NCBI GenBank assembly: GCA_004321885.1
Contig: SCQK01000002.1
Location: 1 to 52,343 of the forward strand
DNA length: 52,343 nucleotides
Source: Patescibacteria group bacterium
Lineage (GTDB): Bacteria > Patescibacteriota > Patescibacteriia > Magasanikbacterales > GWA2-37-8
Direction: 5' to 3'
Below are positions 26,540 to 49,585 of the stretch, one piece after another. A program made the position numbers and the translations under genes. The notes under the pieces are model-generated. The model searched no databases. It was given only the letters and a program-made list of their open reading frames with translations, and had not been told where the DNA came from. Positions within the stretch are counted from its first letter, which is position 1, and every line of letters begins with the position of its first letter.

Positions 26540-26540
26540 A

Positions 26541-27431
26541 TCATTTTTTTCTCCAGCCCATTTTTTTAAGAATCTTTTTTATCAATTCCTTGAAAGACAC
26601 CCAGCAGCCGCGAATTAAAAAGTAGGCATAAACTTTAGAGCGCGAAATCGGCAAGCCATATAAATTTGCTATCCAGAACACGGCTCGGGCCGTGCCCACG
26701 CTACGTTTATAATTATTCTCAAGCCCCTGGTACGAATCCCAGCGCAAATTATCATTGCGCGTTTTTATGAATGGCTCGGCCAACAAGGCAAACCGGCTGT
26801 TCTTAAAAGCCTGCAACAAGACAAAAAAATGGATGGTGCTGGTGCCGATATACTCATTTTTTGTTTCAAAATCCAGCCATGTTTTTCTAAGAAATAACTG
26901 CGTGGACATGCCGCCGAAAAAACCGACTAAATCAAGATAATTTTTAATTGACTTTACAAAATCGGCTAAGGTATCGTAAACCGCATCCTTTTCCAATTTT
27001 TGATTTGGCTGCGACAGGACCGGTTCTTTAAGCCAGTGGTCATAACCCCAGCAATTAAGCATAAAATAGGGGGCGCCGATGGTTTTAATTTTTTCAAGCA
27101 ATAACGCAAAACTGCCCGGGAAAAAACCATCATCATCGCCGATAGTCAAACAATACTGGCCCGAGCTTTGTTCAATGGCATTTAACAAATTCCGGTCAAA
27201 GCCCAGATTTTCTTGATTGCGCAAGTATCTGATATTGTCAAAATTTTCCTGGTAAGTTTTGACGACTGCCATGGTATTATCTGCACTGGCATTGTCGGAA
27301 ATAACAACTTCAACTTGCTCGCAAACTTCCTTATTATCAAATTGGCAAACAATACTGTTCAAAAGGTCTTTCAAACAGTCCGCTCTGTTGTATGTTGGAA
27401 CGCAAACGCTGATTATTTTATTGCCGGACAT
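26541..27431 (-). CDS. Glycosyltransferase family 2
   Basis: 296 aa with a GT-A N-terminus (ISVCVPTYNRADCL...VVISDNASADNT). Confidence 0.7.
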   Translation of the reverse strand: MSGNKIISVCVPTYNRADCLKDLLNSIVCQFDNKEVCEQVEVVISDNASADNTMAVVKTYQENFDNIRYLRNQENLGFDRNLLNAIEQSSGQYCLTIGDDDGFFPGSFALLLEKIKTIGAPYFMLNCWGYDHWLKEPVLSQPNQKLEKDAVYDTLADFVKSIKNYLDLVGFFGGMSTQLFLRKTWLDFETKNEYIGTSTIHFFVLLQAFKNSRFALLAEPFIKTRNDNLRWDSYQGLENNYKRSVGTARAVFWIANLYGLPISRSKVYAYFLIRGCWVSFKELIKKILKKMGWRKK

Positions 27432-28702
27432 AACTGAGGCTCTTTAATTCTTTTGTAATAGAGATACCAAAGCAGGACAACGATAATAAACATCTCCAAA
27501 GATTTGAAAGCAAAAAGCGTCATCATGGGCTGACTGCCGAAGATGGGAAAGAGCAGCCACTGGGATATGGACAAATAAAACAGGGCCTGTAAAAGAAAAT
27601 CATAAGCCGTAGACAAAGCCGGACGCATGTTCCAATAAGCGGTGAACATAAATAAATAATAAAGCCCATTATGCAGACCAGAAGCGGTGGGAAAAAATGA
27701 AACAAAAAACATTAAAGTCCCGAACTCCAGCAGAATTAAACTATTGTCGGCATCCGCTATTTTTTTTATCCTATTCATTCTATAGGTCAAGTAATAAAAT
27801 GCCGCGGAAATAATTAAAATAAGCGTCAGCGCAATAGTCTGCGCTTGGGAAAGGCTTAGTAAGTGATAGGTAAAACGATTATAAAACAGGCCCCCCAAAC
27901 TAGCGCTCCACCCGCCGGCATTGATTGAATCAGCGCCGAAACTGAACGTGGCGGCCATAAAATCCGTCAGCATGTCAAAACCAAACCACAACGTGAAAAA
28001 AGCCAGAAAAACCAGGGTGGAGTAAAAAACCGTTTTATTCTTGATGAAAAAATACGGCAGAAAAACTATCGGCATTAACTTGAACATGATGGCGGCGGCC
28101 AAAAGCAAGCCGGTAATTTTATATTTCTTTTTCAAATAGAACAGCAAACACAAGGAAAGCAAAAATATGACCGGCACATTTGTCTGCCCGTGGTCAAGAT
28201 GAAGAAAAAAGAACGGCGAAAATAAAAAAACCAAAGCGGCAATGATAAAATACCACATTTTCTTGCGCATGAAACTGCTTAAAATATAAATGGACCACAT
28301 AAACAGCGCTATCGTAAACATGCTATAGACAATCAGGGAAACATAAAAAGGAAGCAGGCTGAAAGGGATGAAAAAATAGGCCATGAGCGGGGGATAAACA
28401 AACTGAACAATAAAATGGGGCAGTGAAAGTTCGTTGGGATTGGGCTCGTTGGGCGAGGCGAAATAAAAATTCTTGCCCTGGCTCGCTTTCAAGCCAGCGT
28501 AATAGAAGAAATGATAATCTGAACCGCCGAGGCCGCGGCTAACGCTCGGCGAGAAAAGTTGGCGGTTGTCCAGTTGCAGGGGATACCAGCCGAAAACAGC
28601 CGTAATCACGAATAAAAAAACCAGCCCGCCCAAATAAAGGGCGAAAAACGGCGACCGTAGCCAGGTCTCTTTTGGCGATTCTTGATTTTCGTTAAGCATC
28701 AT
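27413..28702 (-). CDS. Polytopic membrane protein, putative GT-C-like glycosyltransferase (DUF2029/GT87-like) or O-antigen polymerase-like
   Basis: 429 aa with 10-12 TM helices and a conserved loop (SDYHFFYYAG). It lies downstream of gtrA/gtrB in the position of a GtrC-type transferase. Confidence 0.4.
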   Translation of the reverse strand: MMLNENQESPKETWLRSPFFALYLGGLVFLFVITAVFGWYPLQLDNRQLFSPSVSRGLGGSDYHFFYYAGLKASQGKNFYFASPNEPNPNELSLPHFIVQFVYPPLMAYFFIPFSLLPFYVSLIVYSMFTIALFMWSIYILSSFMRKKMWYFIIAALVFLFSPFFFLHLDHGQTNVPVIFLLSLCLLFYLKKKYKITGLLLAAAIMFKLMPIVFLPYFFIKNKTVFYSTLVFLAFFTLWFGFDMLTDFMAATFSFGADSINAGGWSASLGGLFYNRFTYHLLSLSQAQTIALTLILIISAAFYYLTYRMNRIKKIADADNSLILLEFGTLMFFVSFFPTASGLHNGLYYLFMFTAYWNMRPALSTAYDFLLQALFYLSISQWLLFPIFGSQPMMTLFAFKSLEMFIIVVLLWYLYYKRIKEPQLCPAIK

Positions 28703-30009
28703 ACGTAACCCCTTAAAAATTCATTAAAACATTCCACCACATACTCCAGCATCTCTTTGTTCAATCCCGGATAACAACCCACCCAAAAAGTGTTGTTCAT
28801 GATGAAATCAGTATTTTTTAAATCGCCGACAACGCGGTAATTGATTTTATTGTCTATAAAATATGGCTGCTTCAATAGATTGCCGGCGAACAAATAACGG
28901 GTGGCAATATTATATTCCTGCAAAAACCGTACCAGCTGGTCGCGATTAAACGGCGCGTCTTCTTTGACAGTCAGCAAAAAGCCAAACCAGCTTGGCTCGG
29001 CCTTTTCTTCCCACACAGGCAAAACAAAATATTTTTCGTATTTTTTCAGGCCATCATATAAAATCTGAAAATTTTCCCGGCGCCTCTGTATAAAATCGTC
29101 AAGCTTCTCCAACTGGGCCACGCCAATGGCGGCTTGCAGGTCAGTCGGCTTCAAGTTATACCCGATTTCCGAATAAATATACTTGTGGTCATAGCCAAAC
29201 GGCAACTGGCCCAATTGCCAGCCAAATCTCATGCCGCAGGTGTTATCATGCCCGGTTTTACAGCAGCAATCCCTGCCCCAGTCTCTGATAGACCTGATAA
29301 TTTTGTTGAGCAGAGGGTCGTTCGTAAACACGGCCCCGCCTTCACCCATAGTGATATGGTGCGCCGGGTAAAAACTCAAGGTCGCCAGATGTCCAAAAGT
29401 GCCGGTTCGCTGGCCGTTAAAAGTTGACCCGAGGGCGTCGCAGTTGTCTTCTATCAGCCACAAATCTTTTTCTTTGCATAACTTTACGACAGCGTCAAGA
29501 GCAAACGGGTTGCCCAGAGTATGGGCAATCATAATGGCCCTGGTTTTTGGGCCGAGGGCTTTTTTAATTTCTTCAATGCTCGCGTTATAAGTTCCCAATT
29601 CCACGTCAACAAAAACCGGAACCAAGCTATTTTGAATTATCGGATTGACAGTGCTGGGGAAACCCGCGGCCACTGTAATAACCTCATCGCCGTCTTTTAA
29701 TTTCTTATTCCCTAATCTGGGAGACCGCAAAGCCGCGACCGCCAAGAGGTTGGCCGACGACCCGGAGTTGGTAATATTCACATACGGCACTCCCAGCCAG
29801 CGGCCGAGCCTGGCTTCAAATAAGTCGGAAAATCTTCCCTCGGTCCACCAGCCATCTAGAACCGCTTCGGTCGCCAGCAAAATTTCTTTTTCGTCAAAAA
29901 CTTTTCCAGAAATGGGAATCGATGTTTCTCCAGGAATAAATTTTTTAAACGGAAATTTTTCCCTATACTCTTGAATCAGCCTACTCTTCAATTCTTCGTT
30001 CATAAACAA
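28699..30009 (-). CDS. ddhC: CDP-6-deoxy-D-xylo-4-hexulose 3-dehydrase (E1; PMP-dependent DegT-fold dehydrase with [2Fe-2S] site)
   Basis: 436 aa DegT/DnrJ/EryC1 fold in which the Schiff-base Lys is replaced by His (FYPAHHITMGEGGAVFT). A Cys cluster (RDWGRDCCCKTGHDNTC) follows. These features and the length (about 437 aa) are diagnostic of E1/RfbH rather than an aminotransferase. Confidence 0.85.
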   Translation of the reverse strand: MFMNEELKSRLIQEYREKFPFKKFIPGETSIPISGKVFDEKEILLATEAVLDGWWTEGRFSDLFEARLGRWLGVPYVNITNSGSSANLLAVAALRSPRLGNKKLKDGDEVITVAAGFPSTVNPIIQNSLVPVFVDVELGTYNASIEEIKKALGPKTRAIMIAHTLGNPFALDAVVKLCKEKDLWLIEDNCDALGSTFNGQRTGTFGHLATLSFYPAHHITMGEGGAVFTNDPLLNKIIRSIRDWGRDCCCKTGHDNTCGMRFGWQLGQLPFGYDHKYIYSEIGYNLKPTDLQAAIGVAQLEKLDDFIQRRRENFQILYDGLKKYEKYFVLPVWEEKAEPSWFGFLLTVKEDAPFNRDQLVRFLQEYNIATRYLFAGNLLKQPYFIDNKINYRVVGDLKNTDFIMNNTFWVGCYPGLNKEMLEYVVECFNEFLRGYV

Positions 30010-30370
30010 AACGTTTGTTTAGATAAAAAGCTATGAAAGCCATGGGCAGAATCAGAATTGCTCCGGAAACATAATTGCTTACGCCTTTTAAGTTAAGAAA
30101 ACAAAGAAAAACAAGATTGATTAAATAGGTAAAAGCGTAAACACCAACAAACTTAAAAAGTAAATCGCGACGGTAAGAGGCGAAGACCAGCCGGCCGACG
30201 GTCTGAAAATTGAACAAAACCCCCAAAATAGTGGCCAGGAGCGCGGCCAAAGCATAATGCAGGCCGAAAAAAATCATAAGAGCAAAAACTCCATAGCCAA
30301 AAATTGTGTTTATTCCGCCGACCGCTAAAAAACGGATGAATTTATTCTCAAAAATTCGCCTCAAATTCAT
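29981..30370 (-). CDS. gtrA: GtrA-family small membrane protein (lipid-linked sugar flippase subunit)
   Basis: 129 aa with 4 TM helices and a GtrA signature (FIRFLAVGGINTIFGYGVFALM). Confidence 0.75.
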   Translation of the reverse strand: MNLRRIFENKFIRFLAVGGINTIFGYGVFALMIFFGLHYALAALLATILGVLFNFQTVGRLVFASYRRDLLFKFVGVYAFTYLINLVFLCFLNLKGVSNYVSGAILILPMAFIAFYLNKRFVYERRIEE

Positions 30371-31305
30371 ACATTAAAATTTATTCTTTCCTTTTCAATC
30401 ACCAGCGGCCGGTTTTTTACCTGGGTGTAAATGGCCGCGATATATTCCCCCAAAATGCCGACGAAAAAAAGCTGCATTGAGCCGAGAAAAAAGAACCCAA
30501 TGATAAGCGGCGCCAATCCCAACTGGAATCTCTGCCAATAAATTAACTTATAAATTAAATAGGCGAGGCCGAGCGCGAAACTTAGGGCCGATAGGACAAA
30601 GCCAATAAAGCTGGCCAACCGCAAAGGCAATTTAGAGTGATTGACAAAACCCAGCATGGCCACGCCGTACATGGTATACCAATTCCTGCCTTTTGATTTT
30701 CCTTTCTTTCTTTCATTCTGCGTGTATTTGAGCTCGGCATGCTGGAAGCCAACCTCGTTAATCATGCCGCGAAAATAAGGATCCGGATCGTCAAATTTTC
30801 TGATGGCTTCAATAAACTCCCGGTCATAAAGCCCGAAGCCGTGAAAATTTCTAATCTGTTCAATATCCGCGATTTTCTTGATTAAAAAATAATACAGCTT
30901 GCGGATATTAAACATTATGCCGCCCTCCTCGCTTTTATTTTTTATGCCGACAACGACCTTGTAGCCCTCTTCCCATTTTTTGATAAAATCCTTCATCAGG
31001 GCAGGCGGGTCCTGCAAATCGGAGACCAGCGATATAACCGCGTCACCCCTGGCCTGCAGCAAAGCGTGATGCAGGGAAGAGGCATGAAAATTGCGCGAGT
31101 TAACTATAATTTTTACATGCTTGTCTGCTTGCGCGATGCCTTTTAGTATGTTCACGGTCTCATCCGTGGAAGCGTTATCAATAAAAAGATGCTCGTAGTC
31201 GTACTGGGGCAGCTGGGCGAAAATTTCTCTAACTTGCAGATAGACATCCTTAATATTTTCTTCTTCGTTGTACGCGGGGGTGACCACGCTGATTAATTTT
31301 GCCAT
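30367..31305 (-). CDS. gtrB: GtrB/ArnC-type polyprenyl-phosphate glycosyltransferase (GT2 with C-terminal TM helices)
   Basis: 312 aa with a GT-A domain (ISVVTPAYNEEENI...DNASTDET) and two C-terminal TM helices. It lies upstream of gtrA. Confidence 0.8.
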   Translation of the reverse strand: MAKLISVVTPAYNEEENIKDVYLQVREIFAQLPQYDYEHLFIDNASTDETVNILKGIAQADKHVKIIVNSRNFHASSLHHALLQARGDAVISLVSDLQDPPALMKDFIKKWEEGYKVVVGIKNKSEEGGIMFNIRKLYYFLIKKIADIEQIRNFHGFGLYDREFIEAIRKFDDPDPYFRGMINEVGFQHAELKYTQNERKKGKSKGRNWYTMYGVAMLGFVNHSKLPLRLASFIGFVLSALSFALGLAYLIYKLIYWQRFQLGLAPLIIGFFFLGSMQLFFVGILGEYIAAIYTQVKNRPLVIEKERINFNV

Positions 31306-31313
31306 AAAATTTT

Positions 31314-32360
31314 TCAGATAAAACTTTTTATCGTCCGGTAAAAACCGTCGCGCACGCTAAACCGGCATTGATAGCCAAGCTTTTGAATTTTTGCAATTGA
31401 CAGTGTGGGTCTGACTTTATTCTTGTTTTCCAAATAGTCTTTGCCGGCCGCGCGCTTTTCGTAAATCACCTTTAATTTTTTTTCCGGCCACATCGCCACG
31501 AGCAAATTCGCCAATTCGCCTATGGATATTCGCCCGTTTTCATTGCCCACATTATAACTTTCACCCCGCTTGCCGTTTAATAGCACGTTAAAAAACCCGG
31601 CGGTAGCGTCGGCAATATAACAGAAAGTGCGCACCGGCGAGCCGTCGCTTTTAATCACTATGTCTTTATTACGAACGACATTTGAAACAAACTCGGCAAA
31701 AACCCTTTTATCATTTTCCAAGTCTATTGTGGGGCCGTAGGTGTGTTCGGGCCTGACGGCCACGGCCGGCACCTGGTACTGGTGATGCCAGCACTGGCAC
31801 ATATTTTCACCCATGCGCTTGCTTTCGCCATAACAGCTTCTGATGTCCATCTGATTCAAATACCCGCTGTCTTCTTCGCTGATGAGCGGCTTGTCCATGG
31901 TCCCGCAAACTTCCCCGCTGCTAAAAAATAAAAATCCCTTGGATTTCTTGGCTCTGGCCAATTCCAACAAATTTTTGGTGCCAAAAACATTCGGGGCTAT
32001 CACTCCAACCGGGTCAATGCCGTAAAACTGGGAACTGGCCGGACTGGCGGCGTGGATGATATAATCAATGCTTCCTTCAAAATCCAATTTTTCGGTGATG
32101 TCGTCGCATCTTATATAAAAAAACGGCGAATCCAAAAAATCGCCAAATCTCTTTTTGGCTTTTTTCAAATTTCGGCAGAGGGCAATAATTTTTAAATTCA
32201 AGCCGGGAATTTTTTCGCTTAAAAACGCCAACATGAAAACCATATAAGACGCCAGCATCCCATTCGCTCCGGTAACCAAAACCGTGGCGTTTTTAAACTT
32301 CTCCCAATCTAAACCGCTTTGGTAAATAATTTCTAAATCTTCTTTAATGATATCATTCAT
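31314..32360 (-). CDS. NAD-dependent nucleotide-sugar epimerase/dehydratase (SDR)
   Basis: 348 aa with a Rossmann fold (VLVTGANGMLASYM) and a YxxxK site (YGESK). Confidence 0.6.
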   Translation of the reverse strand: MNDIIKEDLEIIYQSGLDWEKFKNATVLVTGANGMLASYMVFMLAFLSEKIPGLNLKIIALCRNLKKAKKRFGDFLDSPFFYIRCDDITEKLDFEGSIDYIIHAASPASSQFYGIDPVGVIAPNVFGTKNLLELARAKKSKGFLFFSSGEVCGTMDKPLISEEDSGYLNQMDIRSCYGESKRMGENMCQCWHHQYQVPAVAVRPEHTYGPTIDLENDKRVFAEFVSNVVRNKDIVIKSDGSPVRTFCYIADATAGFFNVLLNGKRGESYNVGNENGRISIGELANLLVAMWPEKKLKVIYEKRAAGKDYLENKNKVRPTLSIAKIQKLGYQCRFSVRDGFYRTIKSFI

Positions 32361-32361
32361 G

Positions 32362-33522
32362 TTAATATATTTTGACTATTTCATTTTTTAGCTTCAATTC
32401 ATCTTTTATTTGGCGTGCCACCTCTTCCTGATAAGAAAAAGTTGAGATTAAAATGGGGGCGTTTTCTTTGATTTCTCGCGGAGACTTGATTTCAACCCCG
32501 TTGATTTTCTTTCCGTGATATTTGACGTTTGAATCCACGAAATACAATACCTTGGCCAGGTCCAGGCCGGCGCCCACCAGGCGCTGGGTGTGCGTGCCCA
32601 CGCCCCAAATGATTATTTTTTCGTGCTTGCCCAAAACTTCGCTCAAAAACTTGTTCACCTCGATGTCCAGTTGCGCGCATTTTGATATGTAGTCGCCGAG
32701 TTTCTTCTCGGTAATATCATCTTTGACAATTTCAGACTTAAGTTGAGGGGAAAACTTTGCTAAAACAAAAATGTCCGGGTCTATCGTCTGATTGACCGTG
32801 TTTTCATTTTTTTGCATTTCCACGATTTCAAAACCAAACTTCCCCAACAAATTTTTTAAGGACACATCGCTGAAATAATCAATATGCTCTATGCTGAACT
32901 GCTGAAACGGGGTAAAAATATACGAATCAAAACGCGTCGCGTCCGGCACCTCCACAAACAACAGACCGCCTTCGTTTAATAATGACTGAATTTTATCCAC
33001 GGAGCCGCTAAAATCCACCAGGTGCTCCAATACAGCTGACAAAATTATTACGTCAAATTTGTTCTCCGCGCTAAAATTGGAAATTGTGTCAGCGACGGCG
33101 TCAATGCCGTAGAGTTCCTTTACTGTTTTGACGCAAGTCGGCGAAGGGTCAATGCCCAAAAGATTGACGTAGCCTTTTTCCTTGAGCATATTGAGCAGAC
33201 AGCCAGTGGAGCATCCAATGTCCACTATTTTGGCGCGCTTGTCTTTGAGATGGGGAACCAAAAAATCAATAATCTTTTTAAAATATTTTTGGTAATCCTC
33301 CGAAACAACGCCATCCTTATAATTAAACTCCCACTTGGACATTATTTCATAGTATTTATTAAATTCCTCTTGTCCGGGAATATTATCAGCAAAAACAAAA
33401 CCGCATTTTTGGCACACCACAACATCATAGCCGTCCATTATGGCAATGGCTTTATTGCCGAAATTCTGTCTAAAAAATTTTTTCTTTCCCTCGGATAAAC
33501 AAATCGGACAAGGCCTAAGCAT
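32362..33522 (-). CDS. NDP-hexose C-methyltransferase-like (TcaB9/TylC3 architecture: Zn-ribbon plus SAM-MT plus C-terminal domain)
   Basis: 386 aa with an N-terminal Cys4 zinc ribbon (CPICLS...CQKCGFVF), a class I SAM motif (IVDIGCSTGCLL) and a C-terminal C-methyltransferase-like domain. Confidence 0.55.
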   Translation of the reverse strand: MLRPCPICLSEGKKKFFRQNFGNKAIAIMDGYDVVVCQKCGFVFADNIPGQEEFNKYYEIMSKWEFNYKDGVVSEDYQKYFKKIIDFLVPHLKDKRAKIVDIGCSTGCLLNMLKEKGYVNLLGIDPSPTCVKTVKELYGIDAVADTISNFSAENKFDVIILSAVLEHLVDFSGSVDKIQSLLNEGGLLFVEVPDATRFDSYIFTPFQQFSIEHIDYFSDVSLKNLLGKFGFEIVEMQKNENTVNQTIDPDIFVLAKFSPQLKSEIVKDDITEKKLGDYISKCAQLDIEVNKFLSEVLGKHEKIIIWGVGTHTQRLVGAGLDLAKVLYFVDSNVKYHGKKINGVEIKSPREIKENAPILISTFSYQEEVARQIKDELKLKNEIVKIY

Positions 33523-33524
33523 AT

Positions 33525-34544
33525 TTAAGATTGATAATGTTGTTTTAACCTTTCAGCAGCGCTGTTTAAGTTATCCTCCGGGAACAATCTGTATTTAACA
33601 ATATTGCAGTCCGCGCATGGCCCGCCCAAGATTTTGGCTCCTTCCAGCATTGTCCTTCTAAATTTTTGAAAGACAGGACCATTCCAGATTTCGGTTACTG
33701 ATTCTTTGTTGCAATCGCCCATAATGCCCGGATAATCCCAAGAATAGCAAGGAACAACCTTTCCGTCCGGATTGATTTGCATGTGAAAAAAAGGCTGGGG
33801 GCAAATTTTAACTTCCGAAACAGGCAGGCCAAACTGGGTTAGGTTCATTTCTTTGGCGCCGGGCATTTCTTCGTAATTCACACCGGCGTGGATGGGCACG
33901 GTATGCTCAACGGCTATAGAATCGCAAATGTCTCCAAAAATATCATAAAATTTTTCTTCGTCTTCTTTGTTGTCCAAAGCCGTGTCCACGATTTTGAAAT
34001 AGGCGTGCGCTTGGCCCTTGTGCTCGTAAAAATATCGTAAATTTCCCACGAATTTTTCAAAATCCAAATTAGCTTGGGAAATTTCTTGATATTTTTCCGC
34101 CGTAGTGCCCTGCAAAGAAACCACCAGCCGGTTCAACCCGGCAACGAGCAAGGCGTCGCTCATTTGCGGGGTAAGCAAAGAGGCGTTGGTTAAAATTTCA
34201 ATAACATTCGCTATCTTTTTTTCGGCCGTGTAGCGCACCATTTCCACAATGTCTTTATGCAAAAGCGGCTCGCCGATGCCGACAAAACGGATAACCTTGA
34301 TTTTGCCGGGGAATTTGGCCATGTCATCCACGCATTTTTTGTACAAACTTAAATCCATCATTATTTTATCGGAAATAAACCCGCGCTTGGAAGGCTCCAC
34401 TGAAAAAATACAATAACAACACTTAAAAACACAGGCGTAAATGGGGAAAATTTGTACAGCAAAAGGCGTGTCCAAAGGAAGCGCTTCCGAGAGTGGAGTT
34501 CTTTTGCCTCCCGGGGCTTGTCCACCTATATTTTTTGCTTTCAT
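33525..34544 (-). CDS. Radical SAM enzyme with C-terminal SPASM/twitch domain
   Basis: The CX3CX2C motif (CVFKCCYC) and a C-terminal Cys-rich auxiliary cluster region (PCYSW...GGPCADC) are present. The start is trimmed to MKAKNIGG (ATG at 34544), which overlaps the upstream gene stop as ATGA. Confidence 0.7.
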   Translation of the reverse strand: MKAKNIGGQAPGGKRTPLSEALPLDTPFAVQIFPIYACVFKCCYCIFSVEPSKRGFISDKIMMDLSLYKKCVDDMAKFPGKIKVIRFVGIGEPLLHKDIVEMVRYTAEKKIANVIEILTNASLLTPQMSDALLVAGLNRLVVSLQGTTAEKYQEISQANLDFEKFVGNLRYFYEHKGQAHAYFKIVDTALDNKEDEEKFYDIFGDICDSIAVEHTVPIHAGVNYEEMPGAKEMNLTQFGLPVSEVKICPQPFFHMQINPDGKVVPCYSWDYPGIMGDCNKESVTEIWNGPVFQKFRRTMLEGAKILGGPCADCNIVKYRLFPEDNLNSAAERLKQHYQS

Positions 34545-36211
34545 ACCAAGGGCGCTAACGCGAATTGCTCGGCGTATTTTTTCCAAAATGCCGATTGAGA
34601 AACTATGGCATTATATTTTGACCTGTATTCATCGTACTTATCCGCCTGGTTCATCATTTTATAACATTTGGCCGCGAAATAATAAGCAAAGGCATGGTCG
34701 TCTCTCGCTTGAATCGTGTTGGCAAAACCCTTCAGGGCCGTGGCATAATTGCCCAGCCGGAATTCCGTGTTGAGCGCGAAATTAAGTTCCAGATTCATGG
34801 TATAGGCTTTTTCCTGAATATATTCCGGGGTAAAATCATCGGTCCCGATAACCGCTCTCTTAAAATCACAGCTCATGTAATCCCCCTTGATAAAATTTTT
34901 CTGCAGGCACGTATCCAGCATTTCACTGCCCACCAGGGGCGTGGCCATGCTGATTCTAAACCAGGAGGCGTTAAGCGTTTTCAAAAAAGCCAGGGCATCT
35001 TCAATATCCTGTTTGGTTTCCCCGGGCAAACCGATGAGTATGGACACGTCCGAAGCAATGCCCAGCGCGCGACAATCGCGCAGAACCCGCGACACTATGG
35101 AGAGATTAAGCGGCTTGTGCATAATCTCGCGCAGGACCCGTTCACTGCCCGATTCCACTGACAGTATCAAATTATCCATGCCGGTGCTTTTTAGCGCTTC
35201 CAGCATTTTATAATCCAGCGCGTACAAGGCCAAAGAAGACGGGAAAAAAGACGTAAGCTTCAACTCGTTTAAGATATTCACGATTTCAAAAGCCCTGTGC
35301 CTGTTCACCAGCAAATGGTCGTCAAAAAACACCGCGGTCTGGGCGCCGTACTCGTCCCGCAGGCGCATCAAGTCCTCGCGCACTCTTTTCAAACTGTGAA
35401 AGCGCACGACCCGGCCGTGCACGGTGTGCGAAGCGCAAAAACAGCATTTATGCGGGCATCCCCGCGACGTCATTATGGGCATGCCTTTTTTTTGCCGTTC
35501 TTTTTCCAGGGGAAACAGGCCCAACAGCGAATGCTCGCGGTAATCATCCGCGTTGAGAATGCTGAAATCATAAAATGGAATTTCATCCAAATCTTCAATA
35601 AAATCAAACTGGAACATCTGGTTGTTTTCGGCTTTTTCCCTCGTAATCCAGCTAAGATGATTGCGCAGTAATGCTTTTTTATCCCCGGCTTTGACCAGCG
35701 CGAGCAGGGGTTTTTCCGCCTCGCCATAGCAAATCGCGTCAAAGCAGTCGCTGGCCTTAAACATTTCCCGGTACATATTGGTTGGCACCCCGCCGCCGGC
35801 CATGAGCATAGACGCGGGGAAAATTTTGCGCGCCGTTGCCGCCAAATCCAGCATATTGTAATAGGCCGGGGCAAACAGCGCGGATATGCCAACCATGGTG
35901 GGAGCGAAATCTTTCCACTCTGGCGCGGAAAGAGTTTCAAAAAATAATTCGGCAAAAGAATTATAATTAAAACTTTCTATTTTATTCAAAACCACGTTAA
36001 AATCCAGCAGCCTGACTTCCACCGGCGCGTTTTTTTTCAAATAAGCGCTCAGCGAAATAAGCCCGATAGGCATTTCGGTAAGCACGCTACCGTAGTTTCC
36101 CGTCCTTTTTTGCACGACGCGCTCATTAAAAGCGGGCCGAACAAAACTTTCAAACTTAATGTAAGGCGGGACGATAAATAAAATTCGTTCCATAGTAATA
36201 GACTTATTCAT
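34541..36211 (-). CDS. Cobalamin-binding (class B) radical SAM enzyme
   Basis: It has an N-terminal B12-binding Rossmann-like domain and a radical SAM core (SRGCPHKCCFCAS). The start could be MNKS (36211), MERIL (36193), or the annotated 36262. Length is about 555-573 aa. Confidence 0.7.
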   Translation of the reverse strand: MNKSITMERILFIVPPYIKFESFVRPAFNERVVQKRTGNYGSVLTEMPIGLISLSAYLKKNAPVEVRLLDFNVVLNKIESFNYNSFAELFFETLSAPEWKDFAPTMVGISALFAPAYYNMLDLAATARKIFPASMLMAGGGVPTNMYREMFKASDCFDAICYGEAEKPLLALVKAGDKKALLRNHLSWITREKAENNQMFQFDFIEDLDEIPFYDFSILNADDYREHSLLGLFPLEKERQKKGMPIMTSRGCPHKCCFCASHTVHGRVVRFHSLKRVREDLMRLRDEYGAQTAVFFDDHLLVNRHRAFEIVNILNELKLTSFFPSSLALYALDYKMLEALKSTGMDNLILSVESGSERVLREIMHKPLNLSIVSRVLRDCRALGIASDVSILIGLPGETKQDIEDALAFLKTLNASWFRISMATPLVGSEMLDTCLQKNFIKGDYMSCDFKRAVIGTDDFTPEYIQEKAYTMNLELNFALNTEFRLGNYATALKGFANTIQARDDHAFAYYFAAKCYKMMNQADKYDEYRSKYNAIVSQSAFWKKYAEQFALAPLV

Positions 36212-37304
36212 TCTCAAACAATCGCGGGTCTTCGTGAAACGGCTTCCGTGTTTTGTCTTCATCCGTAAAAACCTCGGCGCACGGCACCGGCAATGGCTTG
36301 CCGTAAACGCGCGGCTCCAGATATTTTTTCATGAATGCGCGGTCTTCGGCAATGGTGCAGGTGTCCACGTACTCGCCGAAATACTTGATGTCAAACCCGC
36401 GCTTAATAATGTCTTTCAGCGGCTCTTGCAAAACATTGCCGATGGACACGTGAATGTAGGGGCAGGGCAAAACATCGCCGTATTGGGTGACGGAAAACAT
36501 GCCTTTCAAAGCAATACAGCCCATATTCAAGCCATAGGCCGGGGTCAAATGCGTGAAGACCTTGTATTTTTTTTCCAGCTCGCGCATATAGGCCATGTCT
36601 TTTTTATCCACCAGGCCGTCATATTTTCTTTCCCAGTTGCCCACGGGCTTGGCATAGCTGACAAATACGCCAATGCCCTTATCAGTAAAGTATTCCAAAA
36701 ATTTTATGAACTCATCGGAATACAAACGGTCTTTCCAAACAACGGTCTGCATAAAAACATCCAGCCCGGCGGTCTTGGCATTATCCACCGCTTTCAGCAC
36801 GCGCTCGTATGCGCCGGGCGCGTGCCGAAACTCATCATGGCTTTTGGCGTCAAAGCTGTCCAGGCTGATTTGCATGCGGTCCACGCCAATGCTTTTGAGA
36901 TGCTTGGCGCGCTCTGCGGTCAGCAGAAAGCCGTTGCTGTCGCAGTTGATGTAAAATTTTTGCGGGTCAATGGCCGCCACCAGGGCGTCAAAATCCTTGA
37001 AAACGAGCGGCTCGCCGCCAGTGATGGTTACCCGCGCCAAACCCAGCTCGTCGGCCTGCCGAAAGAGCTCGCGCACGTCCGCGATGGTCATCTCGCGGGC
37101 GCCGTCGCTGCGGCTCTGAAATCTTTTGATGGAGCAATGCTCGCACTTGAAATTGCAGGTGTAATTGTATTGAAATTGAATAATGGCAATGCTTTCGCCG
37201 CGCCTAATTTTTTCGTCAAATTTCAAAATTTTTTCGTAGACGAGCGGCTTATTTTCTTTCAGATAATTGCGCTTGCCCTGTTCACGCTGGGAAAGTTGCT
37301 CCAT
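36204..37304 (-). CDS. Radical SAM enzyme with SPASM domain
   Basis: 366 aa with CX3CX2C (CNFKCEHC) and C-terminal auxiliary-cluster cysteines (CPYIH...C...C). Confidence 0.7.
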   Translation of the reverse strand: MEQLSQREQGKRNYLKENKPLVYEKILKFDEKIRRGESIAIIQFQYNYTCNFKCEHCSIKRFQSRSDGAREMTIADVRELFRQADELGLARVTITGGEPLVFKDFDALVAAIDPQKFYINCDSNGFLLTAERAKHLKSIGVDRMQISLDSFDAKSHDEFRHAPGAYERVLKAVDNAKTAGLDVFMQTVVWKDRLYSDEFIKFLEYFTDKGIGVFVSYAKPVGNWERKYDGLVDKKDMAYMRELEKKYKVFTHLTPAYGLNMGCIALKGMFSVTQYGDVLPCPYIHVSIGNVLQEPLKDIIKRGFDIKYFGEYVDTCTIAEDRAFMKKYLEPRVYGKPLPVPCAEVFTDEDKTRKPFHEDPRLFENE

Positions 37305-37312: not shown

Positions 37313-37375
37313 TGAGTGAACAAAATTGTTTTGAATATCAAAACAATTTTTGAACGAATTAGATTATATGCCTAA
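37313..37375. promoter_or_regulatory. Two perfect hairpins in the ddhB-rSAM intergenic spacer (13-bp stem AAAATTGTTTTGA/TCAAAACAATTTT and TATATGCCT-AA-AGGCATATA)
   Basis: Seen directly in the sequence. The first hairpin lies about 20 nt upstream of the rSAM start codon on the minus-strand mRNA. Confidence 0.4.
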
Positions 37376-38350
37376 AGGCATATATTTTTTATTGTTAATT
37401 TTGTTTTGATACCAGGCAAATGTTTCTTTGATTCCTTCCGCAAACGGGTAGCGCGATTGCCAACCCAACACCTTGGCCGCTTTTTCAAAATTAAGGCTCT
37501 GCTCGGGAATTTCATTTTTTTGATTGTTCAAAATTTCGTGTTTAATTTTTACGCCGATAATGTCGGAAATTTTGGCCACCAAATCCAAAACCGAAAAATT
37601 CTGGCCCGAGCTGAAGTTAAACGCCTCGCCCCTGGCCGCGGCAATGTTTTCGGCCAGGCAAAGATAGCCGTCCACCACGTCTGGCGCGTACACATAATCC
37701 CTCTTAAAATGCCCGTCGCTGCGGATTTGTAAAACTGAATTTTCCAGCGCGGCTTTCATTATCCCCGGGATAATGCGGTTGAAATTCAAATCACCGGGCC
37801 CGTAGATATTGCCGAACCGGCTCACAGTGGCCGGCAGGCCGTAGGTTTTGGCGTATGTTTGCGCGAGCAAATCAGCGCAGGATTTGGACGCGTCATAAGG
37901 ATGATCGCCGGCCAGGGCCTGATTTTCCTCGGCCAAAAGGCAGTGCTTGCCATAGGCCTTGTCGCTGGAAGCCACTATCACGGCGCGGGTAGAGGGCGAT
38001 AAACGCGCGGCTTCCAAGATATTGACCGTGCCCATGATATTTGTATCCAATGTTTCGTAAGGATTAACATAGGCCGTGGGCACGATGGGCTGGGCCGCCA
38101 CGTGAAAAATATAATTTATTTCATGCTTGGAAATTAAATCAAACATCCTTTCCTTGTCTTTCAAGTCTCCGTACGAGCAAACCACCTGCTCATCCAATTT
38201 TTCCGAATAAAACAAAGACAACGGATCGCGGCTGCGGCACAAACAAACGATTTTAGCGGGCTTTAATGCCAACAGCCGGCTCACCAGATGCGCACCGACC
38301 AGTCCGGCGCCGCCGGTAACAAAAATATTTTGTCCGGTTAAATGCGACAT
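37364..38350 (-). CDS. ddhB: CDP-glucose 4,6-dehydratase-like SDR
   Basis: 328 aa with a Rossmann fold (IFVTGGAGLVGAHL) and a YxxxK site (YDASK). It lies immediately downstream of the cytidylyltransferase. Confidence 0.65.
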   Translation of the reverse strand: MSHLTGQNIFVTGGAGLVGAHLVSRLLALKPAKIVCLCRSRDPLSLFYSEKLDEQVVCSYGDLKDKERMFDLISKHEINYIFHVAAQPIVPTAYVNPYETLDTNIMGTVNILEAARLSPSTRAVIVASSDKAYGKHCLLAEENQALAGDHPYDASKSCADLLAQTYAKTYGLPATVSRFGNIYGPGDLNFNRIIPGIMKAALENSVLQIRSDGHFKRDYVYAPDVVDGYLCLAENIAAARGEAFNFSSGQNFSVLDLVAKISDIIGVKIKHEILNNQKNEIPEQSLNFEKAAKVLGWQSRYPFAEGIKETFAWYQNKINNKKYMPLGI

Positions 38351-39162
38351 AGAGGATTTGTTTTTGTTTCATGCCAAACTTTCCAAAACGGGTCTTTGTG
38401 CCACAGCTCGTTCATGTCCTCCACTTCCTTATACGTATCCATGCATTTCCACTTGCCCTGATGCGCGTAAATAGAAAGCTGACCTGCCCTGGCCAGGGGA
38501 GCAAAGATTGATTCAATCATGCTATTTTCAGTCAACAAGTCAAAGATGTCTTTCTTGAATATCATAAAGCCGCCGTTGACATAATCAGAATCGCCCGACC
38601 GCACTTCATTGTAATCAGTCACCTTGTGCTGAAAAAAACCGCGCAATTTTTTGGTCTGATGGTCTATGTCCAGCATGCCAAAGCGCGAAGTGAGCTTGAT
38701 GCCGGTAATGGTGCCCAAAGTATTCTGATTTTTATGAAAATTGAGCAAATCCTGGATATTGATGTCTCCTACCCCGTCGCCATAGGTTACCATAAATTCT
38801 TCATCGCCGTCCAGATATGGCCGCAGGCGGCGCACGCGCTCGCCGGTCAGGCTCTCGGGGCCGGTTTCGGCGAAGGTTATTTTGAAATGGTCGCAATCAT
38901 TGTTGTGAAAGGTGACTTCGTGATTGTGAGTGTCCAGCGTAAAATCATTCGCCAGACTGCGCCAATTCAAAAAATACTGCTTGATCATATCGCCCTTGTA
39001 GCCCAGCGCCAGAATAAATTCATTGAAGCCGTAATGGGCGTATATTTTCATGATATGCCACAATATCGGCTTGCCGCCCACCAAAACCAGCGGCTTTGGC
39101 TTAAATTCCGTTTCCTCCTTCATGCGCGTGCCTATGCCGCCGCATAAAATAATGGTTTTCAT
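38338..39162 (-). CDS. ddhA: Glucose-1-phosphate cytidylyltransferase
   Basis: 274 aa with N-terminal MKTIILCGGIGTRMKEETEFKPKPLVLVGGKPILWHIMKIYAHYG, closely matching RfbF/DdhA. Confidence 0.85.
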   Translation of the reverse strand: MKTIILCGGIGTRMKEETEFKPKPLVLVGGKPILWHIMKIYAHYGFNEFILALGYKGDMIKQYFLNWRSLANDFTLDTHNHEVTFHNNDCDHFKITFAETGPESLTGERVRRLRPYLDGDEEFMVTYGDGVGDINIQDLLNFHKNQNTLGTITGIKLTSRFGMLDIDHQTKKLRGFFQHKVTDYNEVRSGDSDYVNGGFMIFKKDIFDLLTENSMIESIFAPLARAGQLSIYAHQGKWKCMDTYKEVEDMNELWHKDPFWKVWHETKTNPLCRI

Positions 39163-42498: not shown

Positions 42499-42508
42499 AC
42501 CGATTGTC

Positions 42509-42528
42509 ATTCCTGCGCAAGCAGGAAT
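42509..42528. promoter_or_regulatory. Perfect 8-bp inverted repeat ATTCCTGC-GCAA-GCAGGAAT 11-30 nt upstream of the HTH gene start (candidate operator or leader hairpin)
   Basis: Seen directly in the sequence. Confidence 0.4.
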
Positions 42529-49464: not shown

Positions 49465-49585
49465 TTAGCTCAAGTAAGCGCCGTCTGGATGTGCTCGCAG
49501 CGGCTTGTGGCGCCCAGAGCGCCACGCCCGAGCCCTCGCGGGCGAGGAAAGCGAGAGCACATCAAGACGGCGCGAACGAGAAAAT
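49465..49585. ncRNA. GC-rich, highly structured intergenic element with nested inverted repeats (GCGCCGTCTGGATGTGCTCGC ... GCGAGAGCACATCAAGACGGCGC). It is a candidate structured RNA or REP-like element
   Basis: A long imperfect inverted repeat encloses two inner hairpins (TGGCGC-CCAGA-GCGCCA and GCCCTCGCGGGC). Its GC content is far above the flanking sequence, and no coding potential is apparent. Confidence 0.35.

Follow-up and report, generated by a model that had tools for sequence, protein, structure and literature searches.

The window considered here, meaning the whole stretch of DNA that was analysed, is a 52-kb contig of a Patescibacteria MAG in which a glycan cluster predominates. ORF calling and profile searches place three radical SAM (rSAM) genes at 33525-37304, an interval filled by minus-strand ORFs arranged head to tail and referred to below as rSAM-A, rSAM-B and rSAM-C (Table 1). 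The three consecutive rSAM genes described in the initial annotation are borne out by these ORFs and their Pfam matches, and the nucleotide-sugar operon in which it placed them is confirmed by the family assignments of the neighbouring genes.

Table 1. Genes of the rSAM operon and other sugar-related genes in the window
Gene product	Coordinates	Strand	Matches and remarks
GT87-type GT-C glycosyltransferase, candidate for sugar transfer from lipid to final acceptor	27413..28702	-	PF09594 85 bits
RfbH/E1 CDP-6-deoxy-4-hexulose 3-dehydrase (DdhC)	28699..30009	-	NF011936 690 bits (cutoff 423)
GtrA-family membrane protein, putative flippase partner of the GT2	29981..30370	-	PF04138 52 bits
GtrB/ArnC/PgfS-like GT2, polyprenyl-phosphate glycosyltransferase	30367..31305	-	PF00535; PgfS 177, ArnC 110 bits
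SDR-type NAD-dependent epimerase/reductase, putative ketoreductase of the tailoring module	31314..32360	-	PF01370 135 bits
Class I SAM methyltransferase, TcaB9/TylC3 type (NDP-4-ketosugar C-methyltransferase)	32362..33522	-	Methyltransf_23 90 bits
rSAM-C, radical SAM with BtrN-type twitch (abridged SPASM) domain	33525..34544	-	339 aa; CVFKCCYC motif
rSAM-B, radical SAM with N-terminal B12-binding-type Rossmann domain	34541..36193	-	550 aa; CPHKCCFC motif
rSAM-A, radical SAM with twitch-like C-terminal domain	36204..37304	-	366 aa; CNFKCEHC; PF04055 99 bits
RfbG/DdhB-like SDR, CDP-glucose 4,6-dehydratase-like	37364..38350	-	TIGR02622 best, 195 bits (cutoff 278); PF16363 164
RfbF/DdhA-like glucose-1-phosphate cytidylyltransferase	38338..39162	-	TIGR02623 265 bits (cutoff 300), full length
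Nudix hydrolase	45213..45653	-	PF00293 22.7 bits; tblastn matches to F3 Nudix family
YerE/JanthE-like ThDP-dependent carboligase	46818..48542	-	all three TPP domains
HAD-IIB hydrolase, putative phosphatase for the NeuB product	48546..49460	-	PF08282; TIGR01484 weak
NeuB-family synthase with C-terminal cupin, putative maker of the alpha-keto-acid donor	49585..51144	-	PF03102 136, Cupin_2 28 bits

Junctions and domains of the rSAM trio

From rSAM-A through rSAM-B and rSAM-C to the next gene, the spacers measure 10 nt, -4 nt (ATGA) and 2 nt; the sole non-coding stretch at the trio is the 59 nt upstream of rSAM-A. Coupling by overlapping start and stop codons, as proposed earlier, holds for rSAM-B/rSAM-C, a true 4-nt ATGA overlap in which the start of rSAM-C lies on the stop codon of rSAM-B, but not for rSAM-C and the methyltransferase gene, which are separated by 2 nt (TAAATATG) without overlap. 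The rSAM-A/rSAM-B junction varies with the start codon picked for rSAM-B: the ATG at 36193, chosen because it fits the N-termini of homologues (MxKILFIVPPY), leaves the 10-nt spacer, an alternative in-frame ATG at 36211 gives an 8-nt overlap with rSAM-A (ATGAATAA), and the NCBI model TAN34196.1 (573 aa, start 36262) overlaps rSAM-A by 59 nt. The arrangement of the trio is beyond chance, the same genes being found together again in dozens of loci.

The earlier SPASM/B12/SPASM labelling agrees with the PF13186 and PF02310 matches, except that the SPASM domains are twitch-like, with three and four invariant auxiliary Cys. With 23.4 bits, the SPASM match of rSAM-A barely clears the cutoff of 21.5 and extends over no more than model positions 1-44 of 67; in 120 homologues C50/C54/C57, C263, C281 and C316 are invariant and C342 is present in 80%. 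rSAM-C scores 58.5 bits with PF13186 and 53 with PF04055; its homologues have C38/42/45, C248, C266, C310 and C313 invariant, with C207 and C278 in 95-97%. Its best PDB match is the BtrN twitch domain (5e-11, residues 256-320), with BlsE also near, while rSAM-A is closest by sequence to MoaA, SkfB and BlsE.

In rSAM-B the N-terminal domain (PF02310, 47.9 bits) is followed by the rSAM core (PF04055, 70 bits) and a helical, TPR-like C-terminal tail. Its top NCBIfam score is with the Sden_1168 P-methyltransferase family (133 bits, cutoff 575), other scores including HpnJ (130), ApyD (111) and AprD4 (75), and AprD4 is its best solved relative in sequence searches (6.7e-16; profile 2.6e-22) as well as in fold (6fd2, TMt 0.77, E 3.6e-24), where CysS, OxsB, TsrM, MgmA and TokK come next. 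AprD4 is not known to use cobalamin, and we tentatively entertain the possibility that rSAM-B is likewise a cobalamin-independent 1,2-diol dehydratase, which would deoxygenate the sugar or its side chain together with an SDR, and not a methyltransferase; an SDR gene directly adjoins rSAM-B in related loci L001, L008 and L012 and comes after it in L045-L048. However, the profiles that outscore AprD4 (Sden_1168, HpnJ, ApyD) are of predicted B12-dependent families, the TMq to AprD4 (0.65) is barely over that to the cobalamin enzymes (0.57-0.62), and the top rank of AprD4 reflects sampling, because closer families are absent from the PDB. As a role for rSAM-B, AprD4-like dehydration fits the data no less well than methylation does.

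Peptide or sugar as substrate

Neither the window nor 44 related loci yielded a conserved precursor-peptide ORF beside the rSAMs, in line with the initial annotation, which had noted the lack of one. ORFs of at least 20 aa inside 33525-37304 all lie within the three rSAM genes in other frames, small ORFs in the vicinity of the rSAM genes, most of them intergenic, are conserved in no more than four close relatives among the 44 loci, and where relatives leave ~530 nt between rSAM-B and rSAM-C, that space is occupied by a Nudix gene. In the NCBIfam search the whole trio fell under every curated family cutoff (best scores 89-133 bits, cutoffs 380-575), and by these cutoffs rSAM-A and rSAM-C have no anSME or peptide-maturase affiliation.

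SPASM-domain rSAMs are nevertheless often peptide maturases, and the SPASM/twitch proteins could in principle be RiPP or protein maturases that lie in a glycan cluster by happenstance, particularly as several RiPP maturase models appear among the weak NCBIfam matches and as the maturases SkfB and SuiB are among the top fold matches of rSAM-A, ranking level with MoaA, so that its fold may be compatible with a peptide substrate too. We regard this explanation as highly improbable in view of the missing conserved small ORF in the 44 loci and in the intergenic space of the window, of maturase-family scores that are all far under cutoff, of rSAM cores that begin at about residue 45 (rSAM-A) and 33 (rSAM-C) and therefore leave no room for an RRE domain, and of an association with sugar genes that is constant across phyla and both domains. 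The nearest solved relatives of the trio include the sugar- or nucleotide-acting AprD4, BtrN, BlsE and MoaA. The carbohydrate substrates first suggested for these enzymes are thus supported by the lack of a conserved precursor ORF and of a maturase affiliation, and the trio most likely modifies a sugar rather than a peptide; the AviX12-like epimerisation and GenK/Fom3-like methylation named in the initial annotation are candidate chemistries.

The gene set in related loci

Synteny was compared in 54 non-duplicate related loci, mapped by tblastn and ORF clustering and belonging to Patescibacteria, Omnitrophota, Nitrospirota, Desulfobacterota, Bacteroidota, Kiritimatiellota, Firestonebacteria, Nanoarchaeota and Bathyarchaeia, in which the rSAMs recur in the company of RfbF/G/H, the NeuB+cupin protein, HAD, the ThDP enzyme, Nudix, the C-methyltransferase, SDRs, GT2 and GtrA. 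Co-occurrence was counted in loci of at least 14 kb only: those anchored on rSAM-B (n=14) contain rSAM-A in 13 cases, NeuB+cupin in 12 and the ThDP enzyme in 12, and those anchored on rSAM-C (n=16) contain them in 16, 14 and 13, respectively. rSAM-A is therefore the constant rSAM of a conserved gene set and rSAM-B and rSAM-C are optional modules; among distant paralogues of rSAM-A, six proteins carry a Methyltransf_23 fusion and one a B12-rSAM fusion. The whole set lies in one co-directional run in the cultured Geobacter sp. SVR. In the window, the NeuB, HAD and ThDP genes (46.8-51.1 kb) are ~4 kb away from the rSAM operon, and the stretch between them contains unrelated genes and genes of opposite orientation (42.6-45.6 kb).

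The Nudix protein of the window is akin to the one that many loci encode between rSAM-B and rSAM-C, and is 66-69% identical to its counterparts in L021, L031, L041 and L056. Counterparts of the HAD-IIB hydrolase in related loci are 41-76% identical, and those of the GT2, whose PgfS and ArnC scores are under cutoff, are 55-67% identical in loci from other phyla. The methyltransferase gene, where present, stands directly downstream of rSAM-C in 11/11 loci, usually followed by an SDR gene, and related loci have SDR genes after those of the rSAMs or of the methyltransferase. Its product consists of an N-terminal Zn-ribbon and a C-terminal C-methyltransferase domain (Methyltransf_14 match weak), with TcaB9, a sugar 3-C-methyltransferase and D-mycarose 3-C-methyltransferase as PDB matches.

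The co-occurrence of the rSAMs with ddhABC-type genes, which had been anticipated, is seen in the RfbF, RfbG and RfbH genes of related loci. In the window, RfbH is above its equivalog cutoff and RfbF and RfbG are below theirs, and profile searches found no E3/AscD reductase for RfbH encoded there. The rSAM pathway is narrower than 'ddhABC', namely a predicted YerE-type acyl-branched sugar pathway. The ThDP carboligase matches PDB 8rph, the YerE-like JanthE (PMC12188165), with E 1.3e-102 and 347 bits, the best acetolactate synthase reaching 231 bits, and the NeuB+cupin protein matches 3g8r at 1e-105. The gene set is widely conserved and uncharacterised, and its product seems to be a branched deoxy-sugar of unusual type, destined for the cell surface. 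Mostly anaerobic lineages predominate among its hosts, in keeping with deoxy and C-methyl positions being reached without oxygen.

Proposed pathway and known systems

The functional links of the trio come from gene neighbourhood and remote homology, and these suggest that the rSAMs are probably tailoring enzymes for an acyl-branched 3,6-dideoxyhexose that is activated with CDP, belongs to the yersiniose/erwiniose/caryophyllose class and is delivered to a cell-surface glycan. The known scheme for such sugars relies on CDP-4-keto-3,6-dideoxyglucose together with an enzyme that forms the keto acid, a YerE-like enzyme and a reductase (PMC9306805). Judging by family assignment, RfbF, RfbG and RfbH would convert glucose-1-phosphate to CDP-4-keto-3,6-dideoxy-D-glucose, the YerE/JanthE-like ThDP enzyme would add the acyl branch at C-4, and the GtrB/ArnC-like GT2, GtrA and the GT-C would pass the finished sugar to polyprenyl phosphate and then to the acceptor, the latter transfer being ascribed to the GT-C because its gene adjoins the GtrA and GtrB-like genes. 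The ThDP donor may be a hydroxylated 3-deoxy-2-keto acid from the NeuB+cupin synthase and HAD phosphatase, which would stand in for the class II aldolase of known pathways.

As to the exact rSAM reactions, we infer that they come after the ThDP step and take place on the CDP-linked sugar itself or on its side chain, a polyol, and that each rSAM would abstract hydrogen from a carbon that is either unactivated or part of a carbinol. rSAM-C, with a putative BtrN-type fully ligated auxiliary cluster, could turn a secondary alcohol into a ketone, whereupon the TcaB9-like methyltransferase would add a methyl group to the alpha carbon and the next SDR re-reduce the ketone. In rSAM-A the auxiliary cluster has three invariant Cys, as in MoaA, which may leave one iron open to substrate binding, and this constant enzyme could catalyse a core step, be it dehydrogenation, dehydration, epimerisation or C-C coupling. 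For rSAM-B, the reaction could be either methylation of an unactivated carbon with its predicted cobalamin, following the logic of GenK/Fom3, or an AprD4-like dehydration of a vicinal diol that prepares the substrate for an SDR, following that of AprD3.

The rSAMs might instead act upstream of ThDP ligation, the substrate being a free aldose or the 3-deoxy-2-keto-acid of the NeuB+cupin enzyme and not a CDP-sugar, with for example the future side chain deoxygenated, epimerised or methylated. NeuB+cupin and the ThDP enzyme do accompany rSAM-A as often as the Rfb genes or more, several loci (e.g. L041, L045-L048) have rSAMs beside NeuB, HAD or ThDP genes and not RfbF/G, and YerE-like enzymes accept pre-functionalised keto acids (PMC9306805). 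We nonetheless consider this order unlikely, although deserving of some weight, given the rSAMs directly after RfbF/RfbG in the window, L004, L021, L023 and L056 and a partner methyltransferase of the NDP-4-ketosugar-using type. It is improbable that the rSAMs, instead of using soluble precursors, act late, on a polyprenyl-phosphate-linked sugar or on a glycan or lipid that is already assembled. HpnJ and HpnR, both among the weak family matches of rSAM-B, are presumed B12-type rSAMs with a lipid-linked substrate, and GtrB-like GT2 and GtrA genes often adjoin the rSAMs, but Pfam membrane-protein families match none of the three, the AF2 models (pLDDT 92 for rSAM-B) are compact and globular, and the partner methyltransferase and SDRs are of NDP-sugar enzyme types.

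The CDP-sugar tailoring pathway favoured here has RfbF/G/H, a YerE-like ThDP carboligase and SDR reductases in common with the YerE/ErwE/MMAR_2332/JanthE pathways (yersiniose A, erwiniose, caryophyllose), and the R. palustris cluster has a SAM methyltransferase, as does the set in the window (PMC9306805). In contrast with the class II pyruvate aldolase of YerE-type pathways, a NeuB+cupin synthase and HAD phosphatase are present here, with one to three (sometimes more) rSAMs and a Nudix hydrolase added, neither rSAMs nor Nudix being described in the characterised YerE-type clusters (PMC9306805, PMC12247030).

Of the individual rSAMs, rSAM-B resembles AprD4 (with AprD3, the 1,2-diol dehydratase and reductase of C3' deoxygenation in apramycin), whose substrate is a carbohydrate, in sequence and fold, N-terminal Rossmann domain included, and in the SDR that often adjoins it, but identity is only ~20%, the NCBIfam AprD4 model gives 75 bits against a cutoff of 500, rSAM-B has an extra C-terminal helical domain of ~100 residues, and its context is CDP-sugar rather than aminoglycoside synthesis. 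Cobalamin-dependent class B rSAM methyltransferases, both those with sugars or CMP-linked compounds as substrates (GenK, GenD1, Fom3) and TokK/CysS/TsrM, have the same order of B12-binding-type domain and rSAM core, and the substrate of Fom3 is cytidylylated; in fold, rSAM-B matches CysS, OxsB, TsrM, MgmA and TokK at E 1e-14 to 1e-20, but sequence identity is 13-17% and rSAM-B, whose cobalamin binding and methyl transfer are putative, is under the cutoff of every curated class B family. rSAM-C shares with BtrN, the twitch dehydrogenase of 2-deoxy-scyllo-inosamine, an alignable C-terminal domain (5e-11) with four invariant Cys in the pattern C-x17-C...C-x2-C, although the rSAM cores are only remotely similar and C207 and C278 are additional conserved Cys in rSAM-C. 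BlsE, a related twitch sugar enzyme as is HygY, is the next match for both rSAM-A and rSAM-C. MoaA, the GTP 3',8-cyclase, is the best PDB sequence relative of rSAM-A (1e-18; profile 3e-23) and has a three-Cys auxiliary cluster, matching the three strictly conserved Cys of rSAM-A, but TIGR02666 gives 101 bits against a cutoff of 284, identity is 21% and the molybdopterin context is absent.

The radical-SAM genes and their glycan cluster

The window makes up the whole 52,343-bp contig of a Patescibacteria MAG. A large glycan-biosynthesis region spans the window from ~9 kb to 52 kb and includes three consecutive radical-SAM (rSAM) genes, here termed rSAM-A, rSAM-B and rSAM-C, each of which possesses a CxxxCxxC motif and a Radical_SAM Pfam match above cutoff. 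The genes belong to a co-directional run with spacers of -29 to +59 nt, which starts with an HTH gene, a Wzx flippase, a DUF268 methyltransferase and a GT11 glycosyltransferase, followed by an RfbF-like glucose-1-phosphate cytidylyltransferase (best match full-length, 265 bits vs a cutoff of 300) and an RfbG-like SDR resembling CDP-glucose 4,6-dehydratases (best match full-length, 195 bits vs 278). After rSAM-A, rSAM-B and rSAM-C the run continues with a methyltransferase (Zn-ribbon, Methyltransf_23 and Methyltransf_14) related in the PDB to TcaB9 and similar C-3 methyltransferases of NDP-sugars, and then with an SDR, a GtrB/ArnC/PgfS-like GT2, GtrA, the RfbH/E1 3-dehydrase (NF011936, 690 bits, passing the cutoff of 423), a GT87 GT-C enzyme and further glycosyltransferases.

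The initial annotation had described overlapping start and stop codons along the three genes. This holds for the B/C junction, which is an ATGA overlap (-4 nt), but not for the junction of rSAM-C with the gene after it, which begins 2 nt beyond the rSAM-C end, while rSAM-A and rSAM-B are separated by 10 nt if rSAM-B starts at ATG 36193. That start agrees with the N-terminus MxKILFIVPPY conserved in 120 homologues; alternative in-frame ATG codons lie at 36211 (ATGAATAA), which would give an 8-nt overlap with rSAM-A, and at 36262, the start in the NCBI model TAN34196.1 (573 aa). The NCBI records for the window genes are TAN34195-34197. The gene, motif and junction data thus confirm the observation with small corrections, concerning the strand and which of the junctions truly overlap.

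Features of the window and of related loci. Edge genes are numbered within their own loci (L019, Geobacter sp. SVR; L002 and L009, other related loci).
Feature	Position	Strand	Remarks
rSAM-A	36204-37304	minus	366 aa; CxxxCxxC and PF04055 above cutoff
rSAM-B	34541-36193	minus	550 aa; CxxxCxxC and PF04055 above cutoff; B12-binding domain
rSAM-C	33525-34544	minus	339 aa; CxxxCxxC and PF04055 above cutoff; full SPASM match
Second block	45.2-52.2 kb	minus	Fcl-like GDP-fucose synthase, NeuB+cupin, HAD-IIB hydrolase, three-domain ThDP enzyme, RhaT-like transporter, Nudix hydrolase
Interval splitting the sugar pathway in two	42253-45600		HTH_17 gene, opposite-strand metallo-beta-lactamase-fold gene, family-less ORFs; the unrelated genes at 42.6-45.6 kb
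Best promoter-like site	42584-42555		Ahead of the HTH/Wzx genes; not taken as evidence of an operon limit
GT87 GT-C glycosyltransferase	27413-28702		Adjoins GtrA and the GtrB-like GT2
Fucosyltransferase-family genes (two GT11, one GT10), with the Fcl-like gene	39175-40062, 13566-14426, 22165-23226, 51144-52181		GDP-L-fucose synthase-like, 474 bits vs cutoff 500
tRNA-Ala (GGC)	52104-52177		Inside the 5' part of the Fcl-like gene in its longest ORF form
667-aa ORF	18012-20015		Inside the glycan cluster; no Pfam match
331-aa ORF	17015-18010		Inside the glycan cluster; faint GT1 match only
724-aa fusion	14844-17018		Acyl_transf_3 membrane acyltransferase and SDR epimerase/dehydratase
Second Nudix gene	14423-14875		After the Acyl_transf_3/SDR fusion
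Two tRNA-Ser genes	8917-9238
Region outside the glycan cluster	187-8942		SSB, ribosomal protein S6, type IV pilus block (PilB-like T2SSE, PilC-like T2SSF, PilM, T2SSM-like), methyltransferase, YchF
Edge B12-type rSAM, L019	18529-20319
Edge B12-type rSAM, L002	19172-21650
Edge B12-type rSAM, L009	15509-18038

The second block supplies a NeuB-family synthase with a C-terminal cupin (NeuB+cupin) and a ThDP enzyme which matches PDB 8rph at 1.3e-102 and 347 bits, vs 231 bits for the highest-scoring acetolactate synthase. PDB 8rph is JanthE, a YerE-like carboligase (PMC12188165). The class II pyruvate aldolase that donates the keto acid in the YerE-type pathway was not found, and NeuB+cupin and the HAD phosphatase stand in that position. 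Nor did the window ORFs scanned include an E3/AscD [2Fe-2S] flavoprotein reductase, the partner of RfbH, in place of which a housekeeping reductase may act. The idea that rSAM-A itself substitutes for the missing E3 was rejected, as its SAM-cleaving motif is complete and it has no positional tie to RfbH. A phosphonate pathway, which could be read from the cytidylyltransferase, a ThDP decarboxylase and a Fom3-like B12 rSAM, was likewise dropped: the scanned ORFs of the window contain no PEP mutase, and the ThDP enzyme, with its three domains, is YerE-like.

The two pathway blocks of the window adjoin directly in relatives such as loci L004, L021 and L056. Between 27 and 46 kb, predicted promoters and terminators showed no enrichment relative to shuffled sequence (33 vs 27.4 and 32 vs 29.9). 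The cluster looks compositionally mosaic, with a G+C content of 0.39-0.43 in the glycosyltransferase part (23000-34000) against ~0.50 elsewhere, rSAM-A and rSAM-B being at ~0.49. Together the GT11, GT10 and GDP-L-fucose synthase-like genes suggest a fucosylated surface glycan in this Patescibacterium; the true start of the Fcl-like gene must be further downstream given the tRNA-Ala within its 5' end, and its family alignment begins at residue 30.

Domain composition and nearest relatives

All three families are large, strongly conserved and only generically named. The cysteines of the radical-SAM cluster (C50/54/57 in A, C246/250/253 in B and C38/42/45 in C) are invariant in 120 homologues of each protein, the homologues being 69-100% identical for rSAM-A (including Nanoarchaeota, Pacearchaeota, Bathyarchaeia and the cultured Geobacter sp. 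SVR), 58-100% for the top 120 of rSAM-B (~549 aa) and 65-100% for rSAM-C. At 50% clustering the rSAM-A orthogroup reduces to a handful of representatives within a wider set of 240 (E <= 1e-30), and tblastn of rSAM-A against a plasmid collection returned no match.

The labels SPASM, B12 and SPASM, initially assigned to A, B and C respectively, are borne out by the B12-binding domain of rSAM-B and by a full Pfam SPASM match in rSAM-C (58.5 bits), but in rSAM-A the match is partial and marginal (23.4 bits, spanning model positions 1-44 of 67). When SPASM is taken in the sense of the seven-cysteine motif CX9-15GX4C ... CX2CX5CX3C ... C, which holds two auxiliary [4Fe-4S] clusters, neither A nor C conforms, the CX2CX5CX3C block being absent from both. 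Beyond its core, rSAM-A has invariant C263-x17-C281 (with GX4C) and C316, C342 being present in only 80% of the 120 homologues; this three-cysteine auxiliary site has the pattern of MoaA. In rSAM-C, C248-x17-C266 and C310-x2-C313 are invariant and C207 and C278 conserved among 120 homologues, the four invariant residues having the arrangement of the BtrN auxiliary cluster. A twitch domain of the BtrN type consists of a beta-hairpin plus helix and binds one auxiliary cluster through C-x(~18)-C ... C-x2-C, and the four patterned cysteines of rSAM-C, along with its direct alignment to the BtrN twitch domain, predict such a domain here.

In rSAM-B the PF02310 match (47.9 bits, cutoff 32.1) covers residues 41-166, ahead of the rSAM core, and the protein thus has the N-terminal cobalamin-binding Rossmann domain that defines class B. 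Its AF2 model (pLDDT 92) superposes on CysS, OxsB, TsrM and TokK. However, AprD4, which has the same domain, is not known to bind cobalamin, and the domain therefore does not decide cobalamin use in rSAM-B.

Curated-family membership was defined as an NCBIfam score at or above the trusted cutoff, and none of the three proteins belongs to any of the families tested (AprD4, DesII, BlsE, PhpK/Sden_1168, HpnJ, KedN5, MoaA and RiPP maturases). For rSAM-B the scores were 133 for Sden_1168 (cutoff 575), 130 for HpnJ (578), 111 for ApyD (750), 88 for BchE (481), 82 for PhpK (600), 75 for AprD4 (500) and 45 for KedN5 (700), the Sden_1168 P-methyltransferase, HpnJ and ApyD thus ranking above AprD4 with all far under cutoff. 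The DesII model gave rSAM-C 29 bits (cutoff 450), and the BlsE model gave 51 bits for A and 41 for C (cutoff 400).

By sequence, the PDB relatives of rSAM-A are MoaA (1e-18; profile 3e-23), SkfB and BlsE, those of rSAM-B are AprD4 (6.7e-16; profile 2.6e-22), MgmA and TokK, and those of rSAM-C are the BtrN twitch domain (5e-11) and then BlsE. The AF2 model of rSAM-A (pLDDT 83) matches SkfB, MoaA, SuiB, BlsE, PqqE and viperin at TM ~0.5-0.56, generic SPASM/twitch neighbours in which peptide and nucleotide enzymes are mixed and which are not decisive. The top fold match of rSAM-B is AprD4 with paromamine (TMt 0.77, E 3.6e-24), followed by the cobalamin enzymes CysS, OxsB, TsrM, MgmA and TokK; the fold and sequence rankings do not separate methylase from dehydratase. 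Judged on fold and context, the three proteins would work like known rSAM sugar enzymes.

Related loci and the question of a peptide substrate

For comparison, 56 loci were collected, of which exact look-up of homologues gave three for rSAM-B, look-up gave two for rSAM-A, species-representative genomes carrying rSAM-B gave 15 and metagenomes carrying rSAM-C gave 36. Window proteins and families from all-against-all ORF clustering were then mapped onto them. The recurring set comprises RfbF, RfbG, RfbH, NeuB+cupin, HAD, the YerE-like ThDP enzyme, SDRs, Nudix, the C-methyltransferase, rSAMs, the GtrB-like GT2 and GtrA; the association with ddhABC-type genes, which the initial annotation had proposed to check, is found across related loci. 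Across phyla of both bacteria and archaea, among them the genome-reduced CPR and DPANN lineages, the pathway retains 55-80% identity.

Co-occurrence was counted in loci measuring 14 kb or more. In the 14 anchored on rSAM-B, A is present in 13, B in 14, C in four, NeuB+cupin, the ThDP enzyme and the C-methyltransferase in 12 each and Nudix in 11; for the 16 anchored on rSAM-C the corresponding numbers are A 16, B 8, C 16, NeuB+cupin 14, ThDP 13, C-methyltransferase 4 and Nudix 13. These counts make rSAM-A the constant partner and rSAM-B and rSAM-C optional modules. L004, L021, L023, L012/L029 and L056 reproduce the A-B-C order of the window exactly, whereas L006, L007, L019 and L042 have A-B-Nudix-C. 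Geobacter sp. SVR (L019; operon at AP024469.1, 4,560,336-4,581,421, with rSAM-A as WP_173197639.1) has a single co-directional run of NTP-transferase, dehydratase, DegT, NeuB+cupin, ThDP, HAD, A, B, Nudix and C, continuing with methyltransferase, two GT2 genes, SDR and a further B12-rSAM. An MT23-type methyltransferase lies directly downstream of rSAM-C in 11/11 cases, usually with an SDR next.

Distant rSAM-A paralogues (28-35% identity; P0416, P0429, P0441, P0458, P0428, P0462 and P0503) are fused, six of them to Methyltransf_23, in a form that aligns with the window methyltransferase including its Zn-ribbon, and one (934 aa) to a B12-binding rSAM. These fusions mirror gene adjacencies in the window and constitute Rosetta-stone evidence. 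The edges of the same clusters hold additional B12-type rSAM genes that are more distantly related (~500-600 aa, a C2185-like domain being present at the N-terminus of some), and some pathways accordingly have four or five rSAM enzymes.

SPASM-type enzymes had raised the question of a precursor peptide, the absence of which was noted from the outset and is supported by the data. The spacers around the three genes are 59, 10, -4 and 2 nt, the only free DNA being the 59 nt upstream of rSAM-A, and the small ORFs inside the region all lie in other frames of the three genes. In related loci successive rSAM genes are 4-26 nt apart, a distance that rises to ~530 nt when the Nudix gene intervenes. A survey of 328 small ORFs (18-89 aa, mostly intergenic, within 2.5 kb of rSAM genes, 44 loci) yielded no conserved family near these genes, the largest spanning four closely related loci of the 44, the window not included. 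There is also no RRE/PqqD-like domain: the Pfam rSAM match starts at residue 49 in A and 34 in C, leaving no room and with no Pfam domain ahead of it. An affiliation with peptide maturases or anaerobic sulfatase-maturating enzymes (anSME) would have spoken for a peptide substrate, and A and C score far under cutoff with all of the respective NCBIfam models.

Proposed chemistry and comparison with known pathways

The pathway context, the absence of a peptide, and the types of cluster and domain are supported by the data, and because the gene set fits the acyl-branched sugar scheme we interpret the three rSAMs as enzymes that tailor a CDP-linked branched sugar, in keeping with the carbohydrate substrates first proposed. 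Their substrate may be the CDP-sugar, the free keto acid or a lipid-linked sugar. In this pathway rSAM-A would carry out a core radical step (dehydrogenation, dehydration, epimerisation or C-C coupling), rSAM-B would either methylate an unactivated carbon with cobalamin or dehydrate a diol like AprD4, and the BtrN-like rSAM-C would form a ketone, to be used by the adjacent C-methyltransferase and reduced by the SDR. The GtrB-like GT2, GtrA and the GT87 GT-C enzyme suggest delivery via a polyprenyl-phosphate sugar; the best-known members of GT87 are mycobacterial mannosyltransferases that depend on polyprenyl-phosphate-mannose.

We consider it rather unlikely, and put it forward as a speculation, that these genes represent a previously unrecognised route, spread horizontally over bacterial and archaeal phyla (CPR and DPANN included), to higher-carbon sugars that would form a class of their own, branched by ThDP chemistry and tailored by radicals. 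On that proposal rSAM-A, the constant member, whose auxiliary cluster would be open as in MoaA, would perform a type of reaction not known so far on nucleotide sugars, e.g., radical C-C cyclisation yielding a caryose- or bradyrhizose-like sugar that is carbocyclic or bicyclic, and twitch-rSAM, C-methyltransferase and SDR would form a general system for oxygen-free C-methylation of unactivated carbinols.

To our knowledge, nearly all known sugar-acting rSAMs belong to antibiotic pathways (DesII, BtrN, AprD4, GenK, BlsE and AviX12). The literature searched contained no description of the present rSAMs, of rSAM tailoring within a YerE-type cell-surface sugar pathway or of a twitch-rSAM/C-methyltransferase/SDR triad, the YerE-type scheme alone being relevant. 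Here up to three or more rSAMs are fixed components of a conserved cell-surface sugar pathway, and elucidating their chemistry would probably widen the repertoire of rSAM reactions on nucleotide sugars by new ones. The "unifying scheme" of acyl-branched sugars would gain a NeuB-fed branch, and an uncharacterised surface sugar would be predicted in many uncultured lineages. With Geobacter sp. SVR as a cultured host the question is directly testable, making this a solid and broadly conserved enzymology lead.

As a system, the gene set does not open up a new category. In the published scheme for acyl-branched sugars a YerE-like ThDP enzyme joins a functionalised alpha-keto acid to C-4 of CDP-4-keto-3,6-dideoxy-D-glucose, and reduction follows (PMC9306805). 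The clustering of a YerE-like carboligase with 4-keto-3,6-dideoxy sugar genes, by which YerE-type pathways are recognised, is present in many loci. Compared with that scheme, the conserved set uses the NeuB+cupin/HAD pair instead of an aldolase, and adds the rSAMs, a Nudix hydrolase and a TcaB9-like C-methyltransferase.
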